Of a DNA stretch of 64,000 nt, positions 8,279-53,200 are shown piece by piece; the stretch's first letter is position 1; every line of letters begins with the position of its first letter. The stretch is from Scenedesmus sp. PABB004 (taxonomy: Eukaryota), in NCBI GenBank assembly GCA_014905635.1, contig CM026547.1, positions 930,001 through 994,000 of the forward strand, read 5' to 3'. Below the pieces are notes generated by a model that had not been told where the DNA came from, did no database searches, and saw only the letters and a list, made by a program, of their open reading frames with translations. Made by a program: the position numbers and the translations under genes.

Positions 8279-11200
8279 TGGGGCAGCAGCTGGAGCAGCA
8301 GGCAGAGCAGCACCAGGCATCAGGCGAGCAGGAGTCAGAGCAGCAGCGGGGCCAGCGGCAACAGCGGGACCAGCTCGCGCCGCCCTGGCTGGGCGGGCGC
8401 GAGCTCGCCGGCGTCGTGGGCCTGCTGTGGGTCCACCTGGACGAGCCCATGGCGGCGACGCTGGCCAAGGTCCACGACGCGTTTGAGGCCCTGCTGGAGC
8501 TGCTGGTCTGCCAGGACCAGGCGGCCGCGCAGCTGGGCCTCGCAGCGCTGGCGCTCGACGGCGGCGGTGCCGGCGGCGCCGGCGGCGGCGACGCGTGCGG
8601 CGCGTGCGGCGCGGGCAGCGTGCTGGGCGTTGGCGCCTGGCGCGACGCGCGGGGCTTCCTCGAGGCTGCCGCCGCGGCCGTGCTGGGCATGCCGCAGGGC
8701 CGGAAGGGCCGCTACGCGCCGCTCGGCGCGCTGCTGCGCCGGCTCGGAGCGGGCCACCTGCTGCGCGCCGCGCCGGGGCTGGTGCGGCAGACGCTGGCCG
8801 CGATGCAGGACGACATGGTCGCCAACTCGGCGGCGAGCTTCTTCAGGGCCCTGCTGCTGCAGCTGCGCCGCGAGCTGCCGGAGCAGCCGGGCGCGCAGCA
8901 GGGCGCGCAGGCGCGCGCGCTGCTGGCGCTCGTGCCGGACCCGGAGCTGCGGCGCTGGTGCGCGTGGTGGCTGCCGCCGCTGCTCGACGTGCTGTGGGGC
9001 CCGGGCGAGCGCCTCCGCGGGTACGTGGCCAACCACGCACTCCCGGTGGCGCTGCAGCAGGAGGCGGCGCTGCTGCGGCCGATGGTGGCCATGGTGCTCG
9101 CGGCGCACGCTGGCGCGCTCGACGGCGGCGCGCCGCCGCCCAACGCCACGGCGGCGCTCGTCGTGGTGCTCAAGGTGGCGCGCAAGCTGCAGCTCGTGGG
9201 CAACCTGGACGCGCTGCTCGGCGCGGCGGAGCTGGGCGAGCTGCGCGCGGCGCTGGCCGCGCCCGGCGACGACGTGCCGGCAGCGGCCGCGGACGGCGGC
9301 GCCGCCGCCGACGGCGCGCTTGCGGCCGCGTCGCCCGCGGAGCTGCTGCTGGCGGCGGTGTCGTCGTCCTCGGCGGCGCTGCGCATCGAGGCGCTGGAGC
9401 TCGCCTGCATCAACGCGCGGTGAGCGGGCTGCGCGTGCTGCGCGGGCTGCGCGCGCGTGTGCGCGTGCGCGTGTGTGCGTGTGCAGCGGCTGCCGCCCGT
9501 GAGCGAGCCAATGAGGAACCTTGGAAGCTGGAATCCGACATGGGCCCTGCGCCCGCTGCGGACAAACAACCCTGCTCAGTCTGAGGCTCCCGGTGGTGGC
9601 GGTCGTGTGGTTCCGTGTGTGCTGCGGCGTGCGCAGACAGTGCTCGCTGTTGCTGCCGCTTGCCAATGAGGAACTTGGAAGCTGGAATCCGAGACGGGCC
9701 CAGCGCCCGCTGCGGACAAACAACCCTGCTCAGTCTGAGGCTCCCGGGTGCTGTTGCTGTTGCGGTTGCTGCGGCGCGCCGCGCGGCCAGGGAGGATCAT
9801 TCATTACCAATCCTTTTACCGAAGCGTAGCGGCCCCGCGCCGTCTGCCGAGAAACCACTGCTGAGGCCTGCGCGCGCGTGCTGCGTGCTGCGTGCTGCTG
9901 CGTGCCGTGTGCGCCGCGCGCTTCGTCGGCCGCCGCCTGACGCCCGACACCCCCCCCCCCCCGTGCGCAGCTCCACTGAGGCCCCGGGCGTGCTGGAGCT
10001 CGCCATCGCGCGCCGCTGGCTGGTGCTCTGCCTGCGCTGCACGGGCGCCAACAGCCGCAGCAAGTGCCTCGTCACGCTTGAGAAGCTGATCACCCGCCAG
10101 CGCGCCGCGGTGCACGCGATCCAGCACCGCGCCGCCAACGCGCGCAAGCCCGGCGCCACGGGTGCGCGGCGGCGCGCCAGGCACCCGCAGCCCCGGCGGC
10201 GCGGCGCGCCCCGCCGCGCCGCTCGCGCCCCGCCACGGAGCCTGCCAAGCCCGCGCCCTGCCCGCGTCCGGCCGCAGGCGGCGCGCACCCGGGGGCCTGG
10301 CCAAGGCCGGCCCCAACCTGCTCGGCCCCGGCGGCGCGCCGGCGGCGAGCGAGCCCGAGGCGCTGGCCCTGCAGTGCGCCTGGCTGCGCTGGGTGAGCCA
10401 GGCGCTCGTCGACAGCCTCTATCCGGGTGGGCCCTACGAGCGAAAGTACTTTGCCCTGGAGCTGCTGGCCCAGTTGCTGCAGGCGTGGGCGCCGAGCAGC
10501 GACGACGCGGCGCGCGCGGCCCGCCGCGGCGGCGCCGGCACCGGCGCTGGCGCGCACGCGATGCCGCTGTGCGACGCACTGATGTCGCCGGACGCGGTCC
10601 AGGTGCTGCTGGGCTGCCTGGTGGACTCGTGGGACAAGCTGCGCATGGCGGCGGCGCGGTGAGGCTGCAGCTCAGCCGCAGCCGCGCGTGCTCGCGCTGG
10701 GTCGCCCGCCCCGCCCCGCGCCGGCGCCGCCTCACCCCGCGCCGCCTCGCCCGCCGCGCAGCGTGCTTGAGCTGCTGCCGTCGCCGCTGCCGGGCCTCGA
10801 GACGCCGGCGCGCGTCACGCCGCTGCTGGAGTGGGCGGCGCAGCTGCTGGCGAGCCCGCGCATGCGCGAGAGCGACGCCGGCGCGCGCCTGCTGCGCCTG
10901 CTGTGCACCAAGTATCTCCTGGGCATGCGCTGGCGCCTCACGCTGCACGCGGCGCCGCTCGCGGCCGGCCCGCCGATCGGCGGCGGCGTCGAGGGCGCAG
11001 CGGCGGCGCAGAACGGCGGCGCACGGGACGGCGGCGGCGAGCTGCCGGCGTCGGTGCTGGTGGACCTGCTCGCCGGCCTCACCGCGCAGCTGCGCGCGGG
11101 GCTGGCGCTCGCGCGGGCCGACCTGCCCGCCGCGTGCCGGCGCGGCCTGGTGCACGGCACTGTGCTGGCGCTGCGCTACCTCACTGAAGACGTGCCGTGG

Positions 11201-45135: not shown

Positions 45136-46864
45136 ATGGCGCGCGGGCGCACCGCGGCCCTGCTGCTGGCGCTGGCCTGCCTGGCAGCGGTGGCGGTGGC
45201 CGAGGACCCGGTGTGCAGCCCCGGCAGTGGCGTGAGGTCGTTTGACTTCCTCGGCCTCATCGGCAGCCTGATCGGCGCCGGCGGCGGCCTCAGCAGCGAG
45301 CCCAGCTGCCAGCCGTGCAGCGCCTGGGAGGCGAGCGCCGGCGGCGCCGGCGCCAAGTGCGAGGTGAGCAGCGCGGGGGGGGGGGGGGGGGTGGGTGGCC
45401 CCCAGCGCGCGCGCGTGCGCGCAGGCCCGGCGCCGACACCCCTCCGCGCCCGCAGCTGTGCACGCCGGTGCTGTCGGCGCCCAACGCCTTCAAGACCGCC
45501 TGCGACTGCATGCCCGGCACGTACGTGGGCGAGCCGGCGAGCCCCTCGGCGGTGGTCAAGAACTGCGTGCCGTGCGCCGAGGCCGCGGTCAGCACCGACA
45601 AGAACTCCCCCGCCTGCACGCCCTGCCCCGCCGGCGCGGTCGCGGGCAAGGGCAACATGTGTGTCTGCCCGCCCGGCTGGCGCGCGACGGGCGTCACGCC
45701 CGACGGCGTCACGGGCTGCGAGCAGTGCGCCGCCGGCACCGTGAGCCCGGGCGGCTTCGCGGACGCGTGCGAGGCGTGCGCCGAGGGCTCGCTGCCGCTG
45801 CCCGCGGGCGACGCGTGCGGGTGCCCCGCCGGCACGCGCATGTCGTCGAGCGACCCCATCAAGTGCGTGGCGTGTGGGTCGGTGTTTGAGTACAGCAGCG
45901 AGCCCAACCGCCTGCTCATGTGCAAGCAGGTGCGCCCCGGCGCGTGGGGCGGCGGCAGCCTAGCAGCGCTAGCGGCGCTGCCGGCGGCGCCGCGGCGACC
46001 GCGCGCGCGACGCCGCGGCGGCCGCGCGCGACGCCGCGGCGGCGCCCCACGCCGCCCGGCGCGCGCGCCCGCAGTGCTTTCCCTTCAGCTACGCCAACGC
46101 AAACCACACCGCCTGCGAGTGCACGGGCGGCTACTACGCGCCCGACCCCGCGGCGACGCCCATGGCCTGCCGGCCCTGCCCCCCGGGCACCGTCAAGGCG
46201 GCGTCGGGCAACGACGCGTCCGCGTGCGTTGCCTGCCCGGCGGGCCTGGAGCCCAGCACCTCCGGCAAGTCGTGCGGTGAGTGGCGGGCGGGCGCGCACG
46301 CACGCGCGCACACGGGCGCGGGCGCGGGCGGAGCGCTGCCGCGGAGAGGCCGCGCCCACGACACGCCGCCGCCGACCCGGCCGCGCCGCCGCCGCCGCCG
46401 CAGTGACGCCGCTGTGCCCGCCGGGCACCGAGACGGCCGCCGACGGCGCGTGCGTGGCGTGCGGCGCGACGTCGTTCAACTACCGGCGCGCGGGCACGTG
46501 CCAGCCGTGCTCCAACCACACGGTCGCCAGCCCCGACCGCACCAAGTGCGACGCGTGCGACCACGGCTACCTGCAGACGTCGGGCAGCGGCGAGAGCCTG
46601 TCCTGCATGGCCTGCATGGCCGGCTGGACCTGGAACGCGGCCACCCAGGCCTGCGACCTGGACCTGGTCGGCGCCGCGGCGGAGCTGCCCGACCTCAACG
46701 ACGACGAGGCCTGGAAGCAGCACGTGGGCGTGCCGTCGACGGCGATCATGCAGCCCGCGCGCATGATCGCGACGAAGGGGCTGGACAAGGCCAAGGAGCA
46801 GTTCCAGACTGCGGGGCGCTTCGAGGGCGAGATGCCCATGCCGCCGCGCCCCCAGATGCCCTGA
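45136..46864 (+). CDS. Secreted cysteine-rich protein with CxxCxxG (ephrin-receptor-like/GCC2-GCC3-type) repeats (exons 45136-45363, 45456-45929, 46075-46276, 46404-46864)
   Basis: Signal peptide MARGRTAALLLALACLAAVAVA; repeated CTPCPAG, CEQCAAGT, CRPCPPGT and CVACPAG modules; no transmembrane helix. Confidence 0.85.
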
Positions 46865-47064
46865 GACGCGCGCGCAGCACGCAGCCGCAGCTGGGCGGCG
46901 GGCGCGGCGGTGGCCTGGAGAGTATCAGATAGCACAGCTGTGCCGCGCTGCGCACTCAAGCGAGCTGCGCGCGCGGGGTGGGCAAGGCTAGCCAGGCGCA
47001 GGGTGACAGACGGCGTCGTGTGCACGAGGGATGCGCGCGGCCGCGAGCGCTGCGGGGTTTTGCG

Positions 47065-47631
47065 TGCTGCGGTGCGAGCGTGTGCGGCTGAGGCGCCTGT
47101 GTGCAACCCCTGCCGGCGCCGGCGCCGCCGGCCGCGAGCGAACCCCGCACCCTCAGCGGTTGGACTGCTGCGGCTGACCGGCGGCGGCGTGCAGCCTGGC
47201 GGAACGCCCGGCAGCTCACACGCCGCGGCCTGCGAGCTCGGGATTGCTGCGCAGCGCGGCCGGGGCTGCGCACGCCAGCGGCGGCGGTGGGCTGACGGCG
47301 GGCGCTGGCGCCGAGGCGGCAGCGCCGGCGGCCGCCGGCGCCACCGACAAGCGGCGGGCGTGCGTCCAGGTGCCCCGGCACCCGAACACGTGTCAACGAC
47401 GGCGCCCGCGGCGCGCACTGGCTGTGGTTTGGCGGGCCAGGGCCCGCCAGCTCAGCCCCGACCCTGGGCACCCGCGCGCGCCTGCCCAGCGCCGACCCGC
47501 GACGCCGACTCAGACCGCCGCCGCGCCCCTCCTGCGCCACCCGCGCTCGCACACCCGGGCGCCGCGGCCGCCTCGGCCCCGGCCATCAGCGCCTGCGTGG
47601 CCCCCCAGCACCATGGCGGGCGCGCTCGCGC
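47065..47631 (+). repeat. Long inverted repeat, left arm (upstream region plus first 6 codons of the partial-CCT gene)
   Basis: Reverse complement of 49639-50203. Inner ~440 bp differ at about 2 positions by eye; outer ~125 bp are more diverged. Confidence 0.95.
47387..47392. promoter_or_regulatory. G-box CACGTG (ACACGTGTC context), also present at 49878-49883 in the other arm
   Basis: About 220 bp upstream of the ATG at 47613; established bZIP/bHLH element. Function here is untested. Confidence 0.35.
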
Positions 47632-48696
47632 TGCTCGCCGATGTGGCTGAGCTTGCGGACGGCGACGACAAAGCCTTCGCCGCGGCCGCGGGCGGCCCGC
47701 CGGCGCTGGCGGGCGTGCTGCACGGTGGCGCTGCTTCGGGGCCGAGTGCCGGCGGCGCGGCGCGCGTGACCGCGGAGCAGGAGCAGCAGCTCTGCGCTCT
47801 CGTTTGCAGCGTGGTGGACGGCTACGTCGCGCGCACGCCGCCCGGCGGCGTCGTCGCCGTCGAGCAGCGCCTGCTGCTGGAGCTCTGCTCCCAGCTCGCG
47901 GTGCTCGTGCGCCGCGCGGCGGCGCTCGCGGCGGCCACGCCGCTGCCGCAGTCGCTGGAGGCGGAGCTGGCGGTCATGGACGTGCTCGTCAAGCTGCTCA
48001 ACAGCCAGAGCCACGCGGGCCCGCCGCCCGCGGCGGCCGCGGCCGCGGCGGCGCGGCTGCTCAAGCAGCACGGCAGCAGCAGCTGCCTGAGCAGCGAGAC
48101 CACCAACGCGGCCGCCGCGGCGGCGGGCGCGCCGCCGGCCGCGGCGGCGCCGGCGGCCGTTGCGGCGCCCGACCCGGCGGCCGCGGTGGCGCTGCCGTCG
48201 TCGCCCGTGCAGGTCTCGTCGCGCCGCAACGCGACGCCCGCCGGCGGCGCGCCGTCTGAGGCGAGCAGCCCGCGCGCGGCGGCGGCGGCAGCGGCGGCGG
48301 CTGCCGCAGCCGCGGCGGCCGCCGCAGCCGCGCCCGACGCCGCGGCCGCCGCGGCGGCGCTCGCGGCCGGCGGCGGCTACGGCGACGTGGTGGAGATGCT
48401 GAAGCGGCTCTTCTACAGCTCCGACCCGGCTGCGCAGAGCACCGCGCTGGCCCTGGCGGCGAGCCTGGCGGGCCAGGGCGACGCCGGCGCGGCCGCGCCC
48501 GCGCCCGCGGCGCCGAGCCTGCAGAGCTTTGCCATCGCGCAGAGCGCGGCGGCCGGCGGGGCGCTGCCAGGCGCGGGGCTGGCGCCGCAGGCGCTGCTGC
48601 AAGCGCAGCTGGCGCTGCAGCAGCAGCAGCTGCTGGAAGCCGCGGCGGCGGGGAGCGCCGCCGCGGAGCTGATGCAGCGCCAGGGAAGCACGAGTC

Positions 48697-48739
<43 letters not shown>

Positions 48740-49238
48740 CGCCGGCAGCCTCTTGGCGGGGGCTGGTGCGGACCCGGCGATGATCGCGGCGGTGATGGCT
48801 GCCGCGGCGGCGGGGCAGACCGACCCGGCCGCGGTGGCGGCGGCGGCCGCCGCGTTTGCCGCCGTCGCGGGCACCGCGCCCGGCGGCGGCGCCGGCGCCG
48901 CCACCGGCGCGGCAGACCCCGCGCAGGCGCTCAGCCTGCTGCACCTGCTGTCGGGCGGCGCGGCGGGCCTGGCGGGCGGCCTCGACGCCGAGGGCTTGGC
49001 CGCGGCGCTGGCGGCCGGCGGCGGCCGGCCGCCGCACCTCAACGACCGCCAGGCCAAGGTCGGGCGCTACCGCGAAAAGCGCGCCGCGCGCGCCAGCGGC
49101 GGCCGCGCGGCGTCGCCGCCCGCGGGCGCCGGCGGGCGGGCGCCGGCGTCGCCCTTCCAGGCGGCCCTGAGCGGCATGCGGCGCTCGCGGTCGACCAACG
49201 GCATTGCCGCCGCCGGCGTCATGGCGATGCAGGAGTGA
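47613..49238 (+). CDS. Intronless Ala/Gln-rich putative nuclear regulator with a partial CCT motif
   Basis: CACCATGG start, typical codon usage for 541 codons, RQAKVGRYREKRAAR matching the first CCT helix, TGTAA at 49586. Confidence 0.75.
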
Positions 49239-49585
49239 GGGGCAACAACGGGGGGGGGGGGCACCGGCCTTGTGCAGCGAGATGCTTGTGCGGGGTGAAA
49301 CGGCCGCCGGCCGCTGCGGCTGGCTGAGGCCGGCAATGGTGTGACAGCATTCGGCGTCGGCACGCGCCGACGTAGCCGGGGCTAGAGAGTGCCGCCGAGG
49401 CGCGTGCGTGGCCCCCATTGGGCGCGTGTGACCGCTCGTGGTGGGGTCTGGTGCTGCCGGGCGCGGTTGGGAGTTGTTGGTGCACCGCTGCGGCGGTGCA
49501 AAACCGGGATCATTGCCCTCGCAGGGCTGGGCCGCCGCTGCAGGCAGTTATGTGGAGAGTGCCGTGCCGCTCGTTGCAGCGCGGT

Positions 49586-49590
49586 TGTAA
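49586..49590 (+). terminator. TGTAA poly(A) signal of the partial-CCT gene
   Basis: First plus-strand TGTAA after the stop at 49238; lies about 50 bp before the right IR arm. Confidence 0.6.
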
Positions 49591-49638
49591 CGCAGGCGCG
49601 GCCTGAACCCCTGCGCCGCCACACACGCCGCGCAGCGC

Positions 49639-50203
49639 GCGCGAGCGCGCCCGCCATGGTGCTGGGGGGCCACGCAGGCGCTGATGGCCGGGGCCGAGGC
49701 GGCCGCGGCGCCCGGGTGTGCGAGCGCGGGTGGCGCAGGAGGGGCGCGGCGGCGGTCTGAGTCGGCGTCGCGGGTCGGCGCTGGGCAGGCGCGCGCGGGT
49801 GCCCAGGGTCGGGGCTGAGCTGGCGGGCCCTGGCCCGCCAAACCACAGCCAGCGCGCGCCGCGGGCGCCGTCGTTGACACGTGTTCGGGTGCCGGGGCAC
49901 CTGGACGCACGCCTGCCGCTTGTCGGTGGCGCCGGCGGCCGCCGGCGCTGCCGCCTCGGCGCCAGCGCCCGCCGTCAGCCCACCGCCGCCGCTGGCGTGC
50001 GCAGCCCCGGCCGCGCTGCGCAGCAATCCCGAGCTCGCAGGCCGCGGCGTGTGAGCTGCCGGGCGTTCCGCCAGGCTGCGCGGGCGCCGCCGCTGGTCAG
50101 ACTGCAGCAGCAGTCCAACCGCTGGCGGTGCGGGGCTCGCTCGCGGCCGGCGCCGGCAGCAGTTGCACAGGCGCCGCCAGCCGCACACGCTCGCACCGCA
50201 GCA
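49639..50203 (-). repeat. Long inverted repeat, right arm
   Basis: Inverted copy of 47065-47631, including the CACCATGGCGGGCGCGCTCGCG start context. Confidence 0.95.
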
Positions 50204-50226
50204 AGTACGCAGCGCAGCCAGCGCGC

Positions 50227-53200
50227 TCAGTAGCCATCGCCATCCACCGGCACGACGGCGCGCTTCGACGGCGAGCGCCGCCCGCCGCCCCCGCCGACGT
50301 GCCGCCGCCGCAGCGCCTCGGCGGCGCCGCCCCCCAGCTGGCCTCGCCGCCGCCGGCCGAGCCTTGCGCCCGGCCGGCGAAGCCCCGCGGCGGCCCGAAA
50401 GGCTGCTCCACGGACGCGCGCGGGCTGAACAGCCGCTCGCTGTCTGCGCCGAGCCGCGCGCGCGCGCTGAGCGGCGCGAGCGGCGCGAGCGGCGGCGCCA
50501 GTGGCGGCCGCAGCACTGGGCGGCGCGGCGCGGAGAAGCTGAGCGCGCCGCTGATGGAGTCGATGAAGCTCTTGCCGCTGCGCTCCGCCAGCAGGCGCTC
50601 CTGCGGGCGGCGCGGGGGGCGGCCAGCGCTGCGCAGCCCGGCCAGCGGTGCGCGTGCAGCTGGCAGGCGCGGGCGCGGAGCCCACCGCCGTCCCCCGCCG
50701 CCGTGCCCAACGCGCGCCTGCTTGACCACGCTCCAGGTCGCCGCGACCATGCCCTCCACGTCCATGTCCGGCGGCAGCTGCGCGAGCAGCTCCGCGCAGC
50801 GCCGGCTCTCCTTGGAGATGTGCTTGAGGAAGGGCCGCAGCATCAGGACCAGGAACGCCGTGCCCGCCACGAGCTGCGCGCGCGGCCGCGGTGGGCGCGG
50901 TGGGCGCGCGCGCCGGCGGGGCCGGCGTGCGCAGCGAGCCTGCGTGCTGGCATGCTGGTGCAGCGCCCCGGCGCCGGTGCCGGCGCCGGCGCCGCGCCGT
51001 GCCGCCACGCACCATGACGGCGACCAGCACGACGTGCGTCGTGCGCTGCGCGCCAAATGCGGCGCGCGCCTCGTCGCCGTACATCGTGCTCAGGCGGGAG
51101 AGGCCGTCGTGCAGGTCCTCCCACGCGACGCCCCAGACAAACTGGAACCTGCGGCGGCGCGGCGGCGGCGTGGGCGAGCTGAGCGGGCCGCCGGCCACGC
51201 CGCGCGGCGCGGCGCGGCGCGCCGGGCCCGTCCCGCCCCGCCGGGGCGCGCGCACTGGTCGCGGTCGGGCGTGATGTCGGCCGCCGGCTCCACCGCCATG
51301 ACTACCGCCTCGCTCACGAGGCGCTGCACCATCGGGTCGACGCCGTGGCGCGAGACGTCAAAGTAGCGGCTGCCCTCGGCGTGGCACCCCGAGCCGTCGT
51401 AGCGCAGGCAGTCGCTGGTCGTGAAGAGCAGCCGCTTGTGCCTGCGCGGCGCCGCCGGCGGCGGGGCGGCGGCGGGGCGCGTGTGACGCGGCCGCCGACG
51501 CGTGCGGCTCCCGGACGGCGGGCCAGCGCGTACGCCGTCCTCGCGCGCGCGCACGTCTCCGAGGTGAAGAGGCTGCCGTGGCCCTCGTCGGGCGTGCTGC
51601 CGCCGTAGACGTTGGCAAAGTAGACCTCCTGCAGCCGGGCCGCCTCGTCGTGCAGCGCGCCCTGCAGCGCGGCGCGCTTGGCGGCGTCCTGCGCGGGGGG
51701 CGGCCGGCGGCTGAGCGCGCGCGCGCGCGCGCGCGCGCGCGCGCGCGCGGCGCGGCGCTGCGCGGCTCCCAGCGGCGCGCGCGCACCGGCTCCAGCGCGG
51801 CGCGGGTGGCGTGGTAGGTGACCCGGCTGGCCTGCGCGGTGCTGAGGTGGCTGAGCTTGACCGACAGGAGGCCCTCGTCGATGCGGCCGAGCGCCTGGAA
51901 GCTCAGGCCGTAGAGCAGGACCACGACCGCGCCCCACAGCGCAAACGGCCACGCGAGCTGGTACGCGGAGCGCGCGCTCGTGGCGAGCTGCTTGCCGTTG
52001 AACAGCCGCGCCCGGTCGGCCGTGCCAAACGTGCTGCCGCCGCCGCCGCCAAAGGAGCACGGGCCGAGTGACTCGAACCCCTGAGCGCCGCGGTGCGGCC
52101 CGGATCGGACTGGGGCGGGGTGGGCGCGGCGGCGCGGCGGCGCGGCTCGGCCGGGCGGCGGCCCCGCCAGCCGTTTGCGCACCTTGTTGCCGCCGCGGCT
52201 GCTGGCGCTGCCGCCCTGCGCGGTGACAAACACCGCCGCGTCGCCGTTGAGGGTGCCCTCGAGCACAAAGCTCGCTCGGCGCTGCTGCCGCCCCGACGCG
52301 GAGCCGGCGGCCGCGCCCTCGGCGCCGCCGCCGCCGGACGCCGACGGCTGCGGCGCGTCGGCGTCGGCGCTGGCGTCGCCGCGCTCGCGGCGCTTGCGCT
52401 TCATCTTGGCCTCCTGCGCCGCCTGCAGCGCCTTGTCGCCCTCTGCGGCCGCCGCCGGCGGCGCGGGTGGTCGGGGCGGGCCGAGGCGGCGCGCGCCGCG
52501 GCGGCGCCCCGTGAGCGCGCCCGCGCGCGCGCGCGCACCGTCCTCCTCGTCCGAGCCCTCGTCGTCGATGCTCGCGCTCTTGCCCGCCAGCGCACGCAGG
52601 TAGCCGTGGGGGATGGCCAGGAAGACGCTGAAGAGCGCCTGGCGGTGCACGCTGATGCTGCCCAGCAGCCGCGTCACGAGCGCGACCGCGCCAAACGTGA
52701 TGGCCACGCCCTCGATCAGCAGCAGCGCCAGCACCACCGCACGCAGCGTCGCGATGCCGCGCTGCGCGCGCAGCGTCTGCGCGGCGCGCGGCGGCGGGCC
52801 GTCTGCGCGCGCGCGTGCGCGCGCGCGGGCGCGCGCGCGCCCCTGGCCTGCTCGCCGCCCCGCGCCAGCAGCTAGCGGCGCCGTGGCGCCGGCCGCGTCG
52901 GGGCCGCGGCGCACCATGAGGTCGAGGCTCTTGAGGTAGGCCTGGTGCAGCACGGTCGGCGCGTTGGCCTGCAGGAAGAGCCACTGCCGGTTGGCCGCGA
53001 GCGGGCCGCCGTGCGCCTGCTCGCCGTCGGGGTGCAGCGCCGCGTACTCGACGTCGCGCGCCGCGGAGGCGAGCAGGCCGCCCAGGTTGAACAGCGTCGT
53101 GTTGGACGCCGAGGCGCGCTGCGGCGCGGTCGCGTCGTCAAAGACGGTCGCCACGGTGTCCTCGGCGTTCCACAGCGCGTGCAGCGCGGGCGTGTCGAGC

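Follow-up and report, generated by a model that had tools for sequence, protein, structure and literature searches.

Structure of the inverted repeat

The DNA analysed here (the window, 64,000 nt) comprises positions 930001-994000 of contig C1 (CM026547.1) in the 40-Mb, 80-contig genome of Scenedesmus sp. PABB004; GC content is about 79% and introns are short. Between positions 47065 and 50203 of the window, a single gene is bracketed by two inverted copies of its own promoter and start codon (locus B). This repeat is real, it is not unique in the genome, and it is most likely a scar of DNA repair. The coordinates of all features are collected in Table 1 and refer to the window unless a contig is given.

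Alignment of the two arms by blastn (47065-47631 against 50203-49639) showed 94.6% identity over 576 columns and confirmed that both point inward, each with a G-box (CACGTG) and the ATG, as a preliminary description made from the sequence had stated; five to six codons are included in each arm. The runner-up inverted pair in the window is a simple repeat of 108 nt with 76% identity. All 548 nt located 5' of the ATG are present in the right arm. The copies differ by 11 substitutions and five indels, which are distributed very unevenly. Only three mismatches (47190, 47356 and 47417) were found in the inner 444 nt (47188-47631 / 49639-50082), against eight substitutions and 20 gap columns in 132 columns of the outer part, and the outer 126 of the 576 columns hold 14 of the 16 differences (P ~4e-8). 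The earlier division into a near-identical inner part of about 440 bp and an indel-rich outer part of about 125 bp is borne out by these counts. The suggestion of an older duplication under homogenisation is supported by the clustering of the differences and by related pairs elsewhere in the genome, in which perfect tracts of 282-571 nt lie beside diverged ones. The left arm is probably the native copy and, judging from its position, would contain the promoter; the right arm is probably the derived one.

A search for the copy number of the arm over the whole genome yielded 22 matches, of which two are full copies and the other 20 are GC-rich pieces of 40-122 nt, mostly at 72-82%. No target-site duplication of at least 4 nt was found within 6 nt of either end of the whole unit. 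At locus B, DNA that was originally single-copy is present at either end of a spacer, the two copies being inverted relative to each other.

The enclosed gene and its neighbours

The enclosed gene, an open reading frame (ORF) of 541 codons, is single-copy in the genome. Among 1.84 billion representatives, one clear homologue (P0001) was found; the two align end to end, beginning with the first residues and reaching the basic motif at the C terminus. A second candidate, P0002, was dropped as a low-complexity match, two word-indexed protein searches gave no homologue, and an atlas search yielded no match that could be used. The gene is real and, because its stop-free frame aligns end to end with P0001, the earlier reading of it as intronless fits. 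The partial CCT domain proposed at first was not borne out: Pfam reported no CCT at E<=1, the CCT profile (PF06203) found three other loci in the genome and not the enclosed gene, and P0001 keeps the basic motif without the second CCT half.

As described before, the spacer holds the presumed polyadenylation (poly(A)) signal of the gene, a TGTAA occurring once on the plus strand. According to the accessible part of PMC6413133, UGUAA is the main poly(A) signal in Chlamydomonas and TGCAA its commonest variant (6.4%). The Scenedesmus genome is enriched in TGTAA (observed/expected ratio 1.57) and not in TGCAA (0.87). This enrichment, the introns and an ArsJ-GAPDH-PGK cluster (see locus H) agree with a chlorophyte green alga. 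The RNA fold around the TGTAA was ordinary (z 0.86), and positions 46500-50800 gave no Rfam match at the gathering score.

The gene upstream of the left arm encodes a cysteine-rich, secreted-type protein with Pfam matches to NCD3G and an ephrin-receptor-like family, both below cut-off. The TGCAA in the left arm is at best a possible minor poly(A) signal for this gene, since the motif is not enriched; that the TGCAA in each arm serves the two neighbours in this way is a faint suggestion.

Downstream of the right arm lies a convergent PAS-domain gene. As assembled, the frame of its last exon continues to a stop at 50097-50099, within the arm. Codon usage changes to the frame ending at 50227-50229 at a minus-strand run of six G near 50335 (50330-50337), possibly an assembly slip or a real frameshift, and the latter stop is probably correct, provided that either the assembly or the gene has slipped by one base. 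The claim that the right arm abuts the PAS stop probably holds by codon usage and fails for the sequence as assembled. Whichever stop applies, 23 nt from the arm or inside it, the end of the PAS transcript has to lie within the arm or past it, and to provide the 3' end of the PAS gene is the most defensible current role of the right arm. An intron of the PAS gene near 50720 apparently starts with GC instead of GT, as does one in a RanBP1-like gene (L022:5200).

The antisense ORF of about 92 codons opened by the copied ATG exists (91 codons plus a stop). Its length is at chance level, 57% of random 85-codon frames in this DNA being stop-free, and its codon usage is non-coding (score -1.02 versus +0.38 for the enclosed gene). 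A decayed duplication of the whole gene behind the right ATG was unsupported, the second-ORF score (35) falling below the 5th percentile of random chunks (44).

A recurring class of spaced inverted duplications

Spaced inverted duplications were counted in two samples. In the first (864 kb), the window was compared with itself, as were 80 stretches of 10 kb each; a further 140 kb was fetched once the pattern had been noted, bringing the total to 1,004 kb. From the 30 rows of the first comparison, seven spacerless palindromes and 14 pairs of a multigene cluster on contig C5 were removed prior to counting; two rows of locus F were merged into one locus and the second pair of locus G likewise. 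In the second sample, four short repeat-shifted rows and a pair J were merged into locus I, and a third partial copy into locus H. This left seven loci in the first sample, outside the multigene cluster, and two in the second, a total of nine (A to I, Table 1). Five of these fall in the 740 kb that consist of blocks picked without regard to the finding and non-adjacent to the window, corresponding to about 270 loci genome-wide (95% range 88-630). Their distribution is clustered, with none in 100-kb blocks of contigs C2, C9, C20 and C24 and three in the C3 block.

The arms of the class measure approximately 0.45-2 kb with 86-98% identity, and the spacers 0.9-5 kb. Loci A and C have arms that are two-copy in the genome; for the arms of H, the only further occurrences are in a segmental duplication close by and in a partial copy at the locus. 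The presumed derived copies sit in an intron, in intergenic space or behind a TGTAA, or leave an intact copy of the gene. Perfect tracts of 214-571 nt border on diverged sequence. They occupy the middle of the arm in A, E, F and G and its inner part in B; a rule that the inner end is invariably the most similar does not hold for the class. Because perfect tracts adjoin diverged ones, also in mid-arm, the arms have probably been homogenised by gene conversion between them, which is not confined to promoters.

Table 1. Features of locus B and spaced inverted duplications in the sampled genome.
Feature	Position	Strand	Remarks
Stop of upstream cysteine-rich secreted-type protein gene	46862..46864	+	ORF 46607-46864; followed by 200 nt of 3' flank up to the left arm
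Left arm, outer diverged part	47065..47187	+	From the alignment; contains TGCAA at 47102
Left arm, inner near-identical part	47188..47631	+	Presumed promoter with G-box 47387, 5' leader, ATG 47613, first 5-6 codons
Enclosed gene, 541-codon ORF	47613..49238	+	Stop-free frame; alanine/glutamine-rich, conserved N-terminal block, basic C-terminal motif
TGCAA	49574..49578	-	Might be the PAS gene's original 3' signal, or the first point at which an antisense transcript would end
TGTAA, presumed poly(A) signal of enclosed gene	49586..49590	+	Sole plus-strand TGTAA in the spacer; right arm begins 48 nt later
Antisense ORF, 91 codons + stop	49657-49382	-	Opened by the copied ATG
Right arm, inverted copy of the gene's 5' flank	49639..50203	-	G-box 49878, ATG 49657-49655, TGCAA 50167-50163
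8-nt direct repeat flanking the right arm	49631..49638 and 50208-50215	+	Possible target duplication, not significant
Probable stop of PAS-domain gene	50227..50229	-	PAS_4 E 1.7e-7; 23 nt from the right arm
Locus A	C1:904729-906705		Copy inside an intron of a gene running on, same strand; 37-nt extra piece
Locus B	C1, window 47065-50203		Subject locus
Locus C	C1:999679-1004602 (L022, L023)		KH-domain gene between inverted copies of its own promoter
Locus D	C1:1066310-1071952		Copy of the enclosed gene's 5' flank, 2 nt past TGTAA
Locus E	C3:314250-317550		Internal MATE exons copied upstream of the intact gene
Locus F	C3:324925-330624		Inverted copy of AP2-like gene and 950-nt direct duplication of the neighbour's 5' region
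Locus G	C3:383289-387960		One arm has both native junctions; a more distant sequence supplied a second inverted piece
Locus H	C35:1017133-1020749		ArsJ-associated GAPDH; 750-nt inverted copies of promoter and first exon
Locus I	C1:2031742-2037993		As in G, one arm with both native junctions, and a second inverted piece of more distant origin

Several of these loci have features of their own. At locus C, two convergent TGTAA signals enclose the copy, and short repeats of GGGTTGA, which may be filler DNA, come after it. In the region of locus F (C3:324925-331611; L044, L045), the copy is located behind the duplicated promoter and first exon of a neighbouring gene, and a chimeric gene is possible; the two genes, which gave no Pfam match, are taken by us to be AP2-like and TatD-like (the neighbour). 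Locus H belongs to a region (C35:1016300-1021600; L100, L101) with ArsJ-like MFS, ArsJ-associated GAPDH and PGK-like genes, an algal arsenate cluster of the kind which the available text of PMC7826186 describes for green algae. Positions 1014130-1020749 of C35 recur 32 kb away in the same orientation, at 982206-988826, with left arms that are 100% identical; this is either a very recent segmental duplication or a duplication in the assembly. At locus I (C1:2031742-2038572; L095), a promoter with a G-box has been copied, two convergent genes each facing the same promoter sequence, and the second inverted piece adjoining the copy derives from 2028072-2028492.

Other repeats were encountered in the sample. 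The cluster on contig C5 (310000-400000) contains about ten 1.6-kb repeats with 80-88% identity in both orientations and is probably a multigene family; one frame that was tried gave no Pfam match. A satellite array with a unit of approximately 172 bp and 99% identity extends over 8.5 kb at C1:2003777-2012272, and the window has a direct repeat of 87 nt with 95% identity (9507-9593 / 9662-9747). Apparent 3' untranslated regions of about 2 kb, long for a compact genome, were seen in genes for KH and CCCH RNA-binding proteins (L022:8170 to L023:140; L029:5231-7460).

Position of the junctions relative to TGTAA

Four of the loci share a feature: where the 5' flank of the enclosed gene is repeated, the copy begins close to that gene's TGTAA, at 48 (B), 8 (C), 2 (D) and -1 nt (H) after it, and at each of them this TGTAA is the only one on the gene's strand in the spacer. 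As a background, 0.36% of positions lie within 50 nt and 0.09% within 10 nt. With B excluded, three of 16 junctions fall within 10 nt (P ~4e-7, or 4e-4 if the background is tenfold higher for non-coding DNA); four of 18 junctions follow the pattern (4/20 if pair J is counted separately), compared to none of 32 ends of direct local duplications and one of 18 outer ends (Fisher P 0.013; 0.032 without B). The pattern was noticed post hoc, and locus H, from the later sample, represents the out-of-sample case (one of four junctions, P 0.004 to 0.035). Relative to the start codon, the other end of the copy is situated at approximately +15 in B, -35 in C and +46 in H, and 310 nt upstream in D.

Part of this bias can be put down to selection. 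Where genes are closely packed, few places keep a copy out of mRNAs and leave promoters whole, and the space after a poly(A) signal is among them; the inversion of one gene, too, must break behind its poly(A) signal. Offsets below 10 nt do not obviously follow from selection. Breakage at terminators, repair from a looped promoter, later trimming and a new TGTAA at the junction that stops read-through are all candidate sources. At locus H, the sequence just past the junction resembles the continuation of the donor, which fits microhomology as well as a new TGTAA signal.

Gene loops are known from work in yeast. Breaks at the poly(A) signal might be repaired from the gene's own start region backwards, the terminator touching the promoter in a transcription loop, an explanation we regard as unlikely. 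It would fit both ends of the first switch, which leave -1, 2, 8 and 48 nt past the TGTAA and land about 50 nt or less from the start codon in three of the four loci.

Origin of the right arm

On balance, and with some reserve, we favour the interpretation that the right arm of locus B is a locally templated inverted insertion, a repair scar of which the mirror promoter and the possible flip are by-products. A break would have fallen shortly after the poly(A) signal of the enclosed gene, where little space separates it from the convergent PAS gene. Repair by template switching would then have copied some 565 nt from the opposite strand close by, setting out just within the start codon and going back across the promoter, before the ends were rejoined. 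The copy may have survived because it lies outside the mRNA of the gene, which avoids a hairpin, and because it now also serves as the PAS 3' end. Gene conversion between the arms could later have re-equalised the inner 444 nt, the step to which the pattern of differences points. The mirror promoter and a harmless flip would then be side effects rather than an evolved switch.

This interpretation draws on the class as a whole. In all five loci where gene continuity is informative (A, E, F, G and I), the spacer is not inverted. Copies composed of several pieces are present in F (inverted plus 950-nt direct), G and I (a second inverted piece) and A (a 37-nt extra piece), which suggests template switching. 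Rearrangements by template switching are known as FoSTeS/MMBIR (fork stalling and template switching/microhomology-mediated break-induced replication). At locus B, the donor lies within a few kb and the copy is inverted, and a contig from a related strain has the left outer junction, though at low depth. Templated inverted insertions at breaks have been described in yeast, as far as the accessible part of PMC11724301 goes.

A number of observations weigh against an insertion or limit the case for it. For B, C, D and H, gene continuity is compatible with insertion and with inversion by staggered breaks alike. The sample of five is biased because A, E and F could not have survived an inversion, leaving only G and I as fair cases. 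The 239-nt contig from the related strain (46877-47114) crosses the left outer junction of B at a depth of 2.3, and the contigs of that sequencing run include no long piece on the right arm; the junction contig is weak evidence that fits an insertion and equally an inversion older than the strain split, and metagenome scans with an arm motif and by protein alignment found no syntenic locus for B. Similarity past the arm end is patchy, with three of eight pairs above the 95th percentile of the null (anchors set by eye); at B, the inner junction scores 15, a value reached by about 3-5% of the null. The 8-nt repeat flanking the right arm is not significant (153 of 1500 random sites reach at least 8 nt) and, as none of four other presumed derived copies reaches 7 nt, target-site duplication around derived copies was rejected as a general rule. 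The local inversions reported in the available part of the yeast study (PMC11724301) measure 5-34 nt, much shorter than the copies in this genome. Selection alone does not obviously account for the junctions at -1, 2 and 8 nt from TGTAA.

The best of the alternatives, rather improbable in our judgement, is a scar of the inversion of a single gene. The gene would formerly have been on the minus strand behind the PAS gene and then have been flipped, staggered nicks flanking the shared terminator/promoter and a blunt break behind the TGTAA leaving the gene and its neighbour with a copy each. The exact layout would result from one event, and both copies would be needed, given the position of the PAS stop at or in the right arm. 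The other break would be forced to lie just behind the poly(A) signal of the gene, as in four of the nine loci, and such duplications are known from Drosophila (PMC3355041, in its accessible part). However, loci G and I could tolerate an inversion yet carry both native junctions on one arm, the spacers of A, E and F are not inverted, composite copies are not expected from staggered nicks, and the related strain has, on the weak evidence above, the left outer junction that this model calls new.

Regulation and flipping

The mirror promoter proposed at first is structurally true as a layout, the copy covering all 548 nt upstream of the ATG; being complete, it could fire. It seems improbable, nevertheless, that the copy has been kept since it gives co-regulated antisense RNA, or a read-through hairpin siRNA, limiting the gene. 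The completeness and 99% identity of the inner part would agree with such a function, as would the diverged and old fringes, which indicate long retention, and the recurrence of the layout at the KH gene (C), the ArsJ-linked GAPDH (H) and, past a neighbour, at G. Against this, high identity is equally found in promoterless copies of internal exons and introns (E), the antisense ORF is non-coding by codon usage, and the enclosed genes have no common function. A hairpin RNA needs read-through because the normal mRNA should end after the TGTAA at 49586, about 48 nt before the arm, and antisense RNA could be stopped after about 60 nt by the minus-strand TGCAA at 49574-49578.

Highly improbable is either an artefact of assembly or polishing or the Pack-MULE (Mutator-like) or foldback element with promoter-bearing terminal inverted repeats considered in the preliminary description. 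A homopolymer slip may sit nearby in the assembly, no arm-spanning reads were found in one DNA run of a related strain, and repeat collapse could raise the identity of the inner tract. The arms nevertheless differ by substitutions and indels, and the identities of the sister pairs vary as expected of differing ages. Like Pack-MULE and foldback elements, as these are generally understood, locus B has long inverted arms around genic sequence. Unlike in those elements, its arms are single-copy host promoter extending into the start codon, without a family and without a target-site duplication around the unit, and the arms of sister pairs A and C are unique as well; two copies genome-wide, and the lack of a credible target-site duplication, show that it is no transposon.

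A flip would, as suggested earlier, leave the ORF intact, promoter and ORF being spared by a crossover in the arms, and would be harmless and probably neutral. The least probable explanation, a regulated invertible cassette that swaps the distal upstream context, could invoke this, the arm pairing visible in the conversion tracts and the recurrent inversion of repeat-flanked segments in humans (available part of PMC3961182), but site-specific motifs are lacking, the arms of separate loci are unrelated unique sequences, the gene has the same 548-nt promoter in either orientation, the two copies of H in the segmental duplication share one arm arrangement, and occasional unregulated flips are likely but neutral.

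Comparison with known systems and significance

The templated inverted insertions at double-strand breaks in yeast, as presented in the accessible text of PMC11724301, resemble the class in that unique local sequence is copied in inverted orientation near its source, in some cases in two pieces. The copies described here differ in being 0.4-2 kb long and present in a reference genome at several per Mb, with a subset joining a poly(A) signal to the gene's own promoter. The breakpoints of inversions 2h and 2q of Drosophila mojavensis (PMC3355041, part available) similarly have inverted duplicates of single-copy DNA flanking a segment, without a transposon; they delimit large chromosomal inversions, whereas one or two genes are enclosed here, uninverted in the five informative loci. 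In the human genome, HsInv0389 around FLNA-EMD and others, in the part of PMC3961182 that was available, share with locus B near-identical inverted arms around intact genes, a harmless flip and exchange between arms. The human arms are much longer segmental duplications with two documented orientations, whereas B is known in the assembled orientation.

The niv-525 allele of Antirrhinum is reportedly a case in which an inverted duplication of a promoter silences a gene; as at locus B, promoter and leader are repeated in inverted orientation, from where antisense RNA could be transcribed. The copy at locus B, known from sequence alone, differs in lying behind a poly(A) signal, 2 kb away.

In Chlamydomonas, most duplications and inversions were tied to transposons, and the bracketed-gene layout is not described in the accessible part of that report (PMC9977147). 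A literature search, outside which most subscription journals lay, found neither this layout in algae nor a bias of junctions to poly(A) signals.

Locus B by itself is a rearrangement scar; the class matters more, as in a subset of it a gene's 3' signal and promoter are linked much more closely than in the background. Locus H brackets the GAPDH of the algal arsenate-detoxification cluster, and Chlamydomonas mutants of its neighbours have a measurable phenotype (PMC7826186, as far as available). If repair by way of gene loops were true, of the order of a hundred genes would have a mirror promoter at their 3' end, each a ready antisense promoter and flip-tolerant cassette, and the junctions would be a sequence record of contact between promoter and terminator. 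Should the pattern hold genome-wide, sequence could be used to test if structural mutation is directed by transcription termination or by gene loops, and in what way natural antisense promoters originate.

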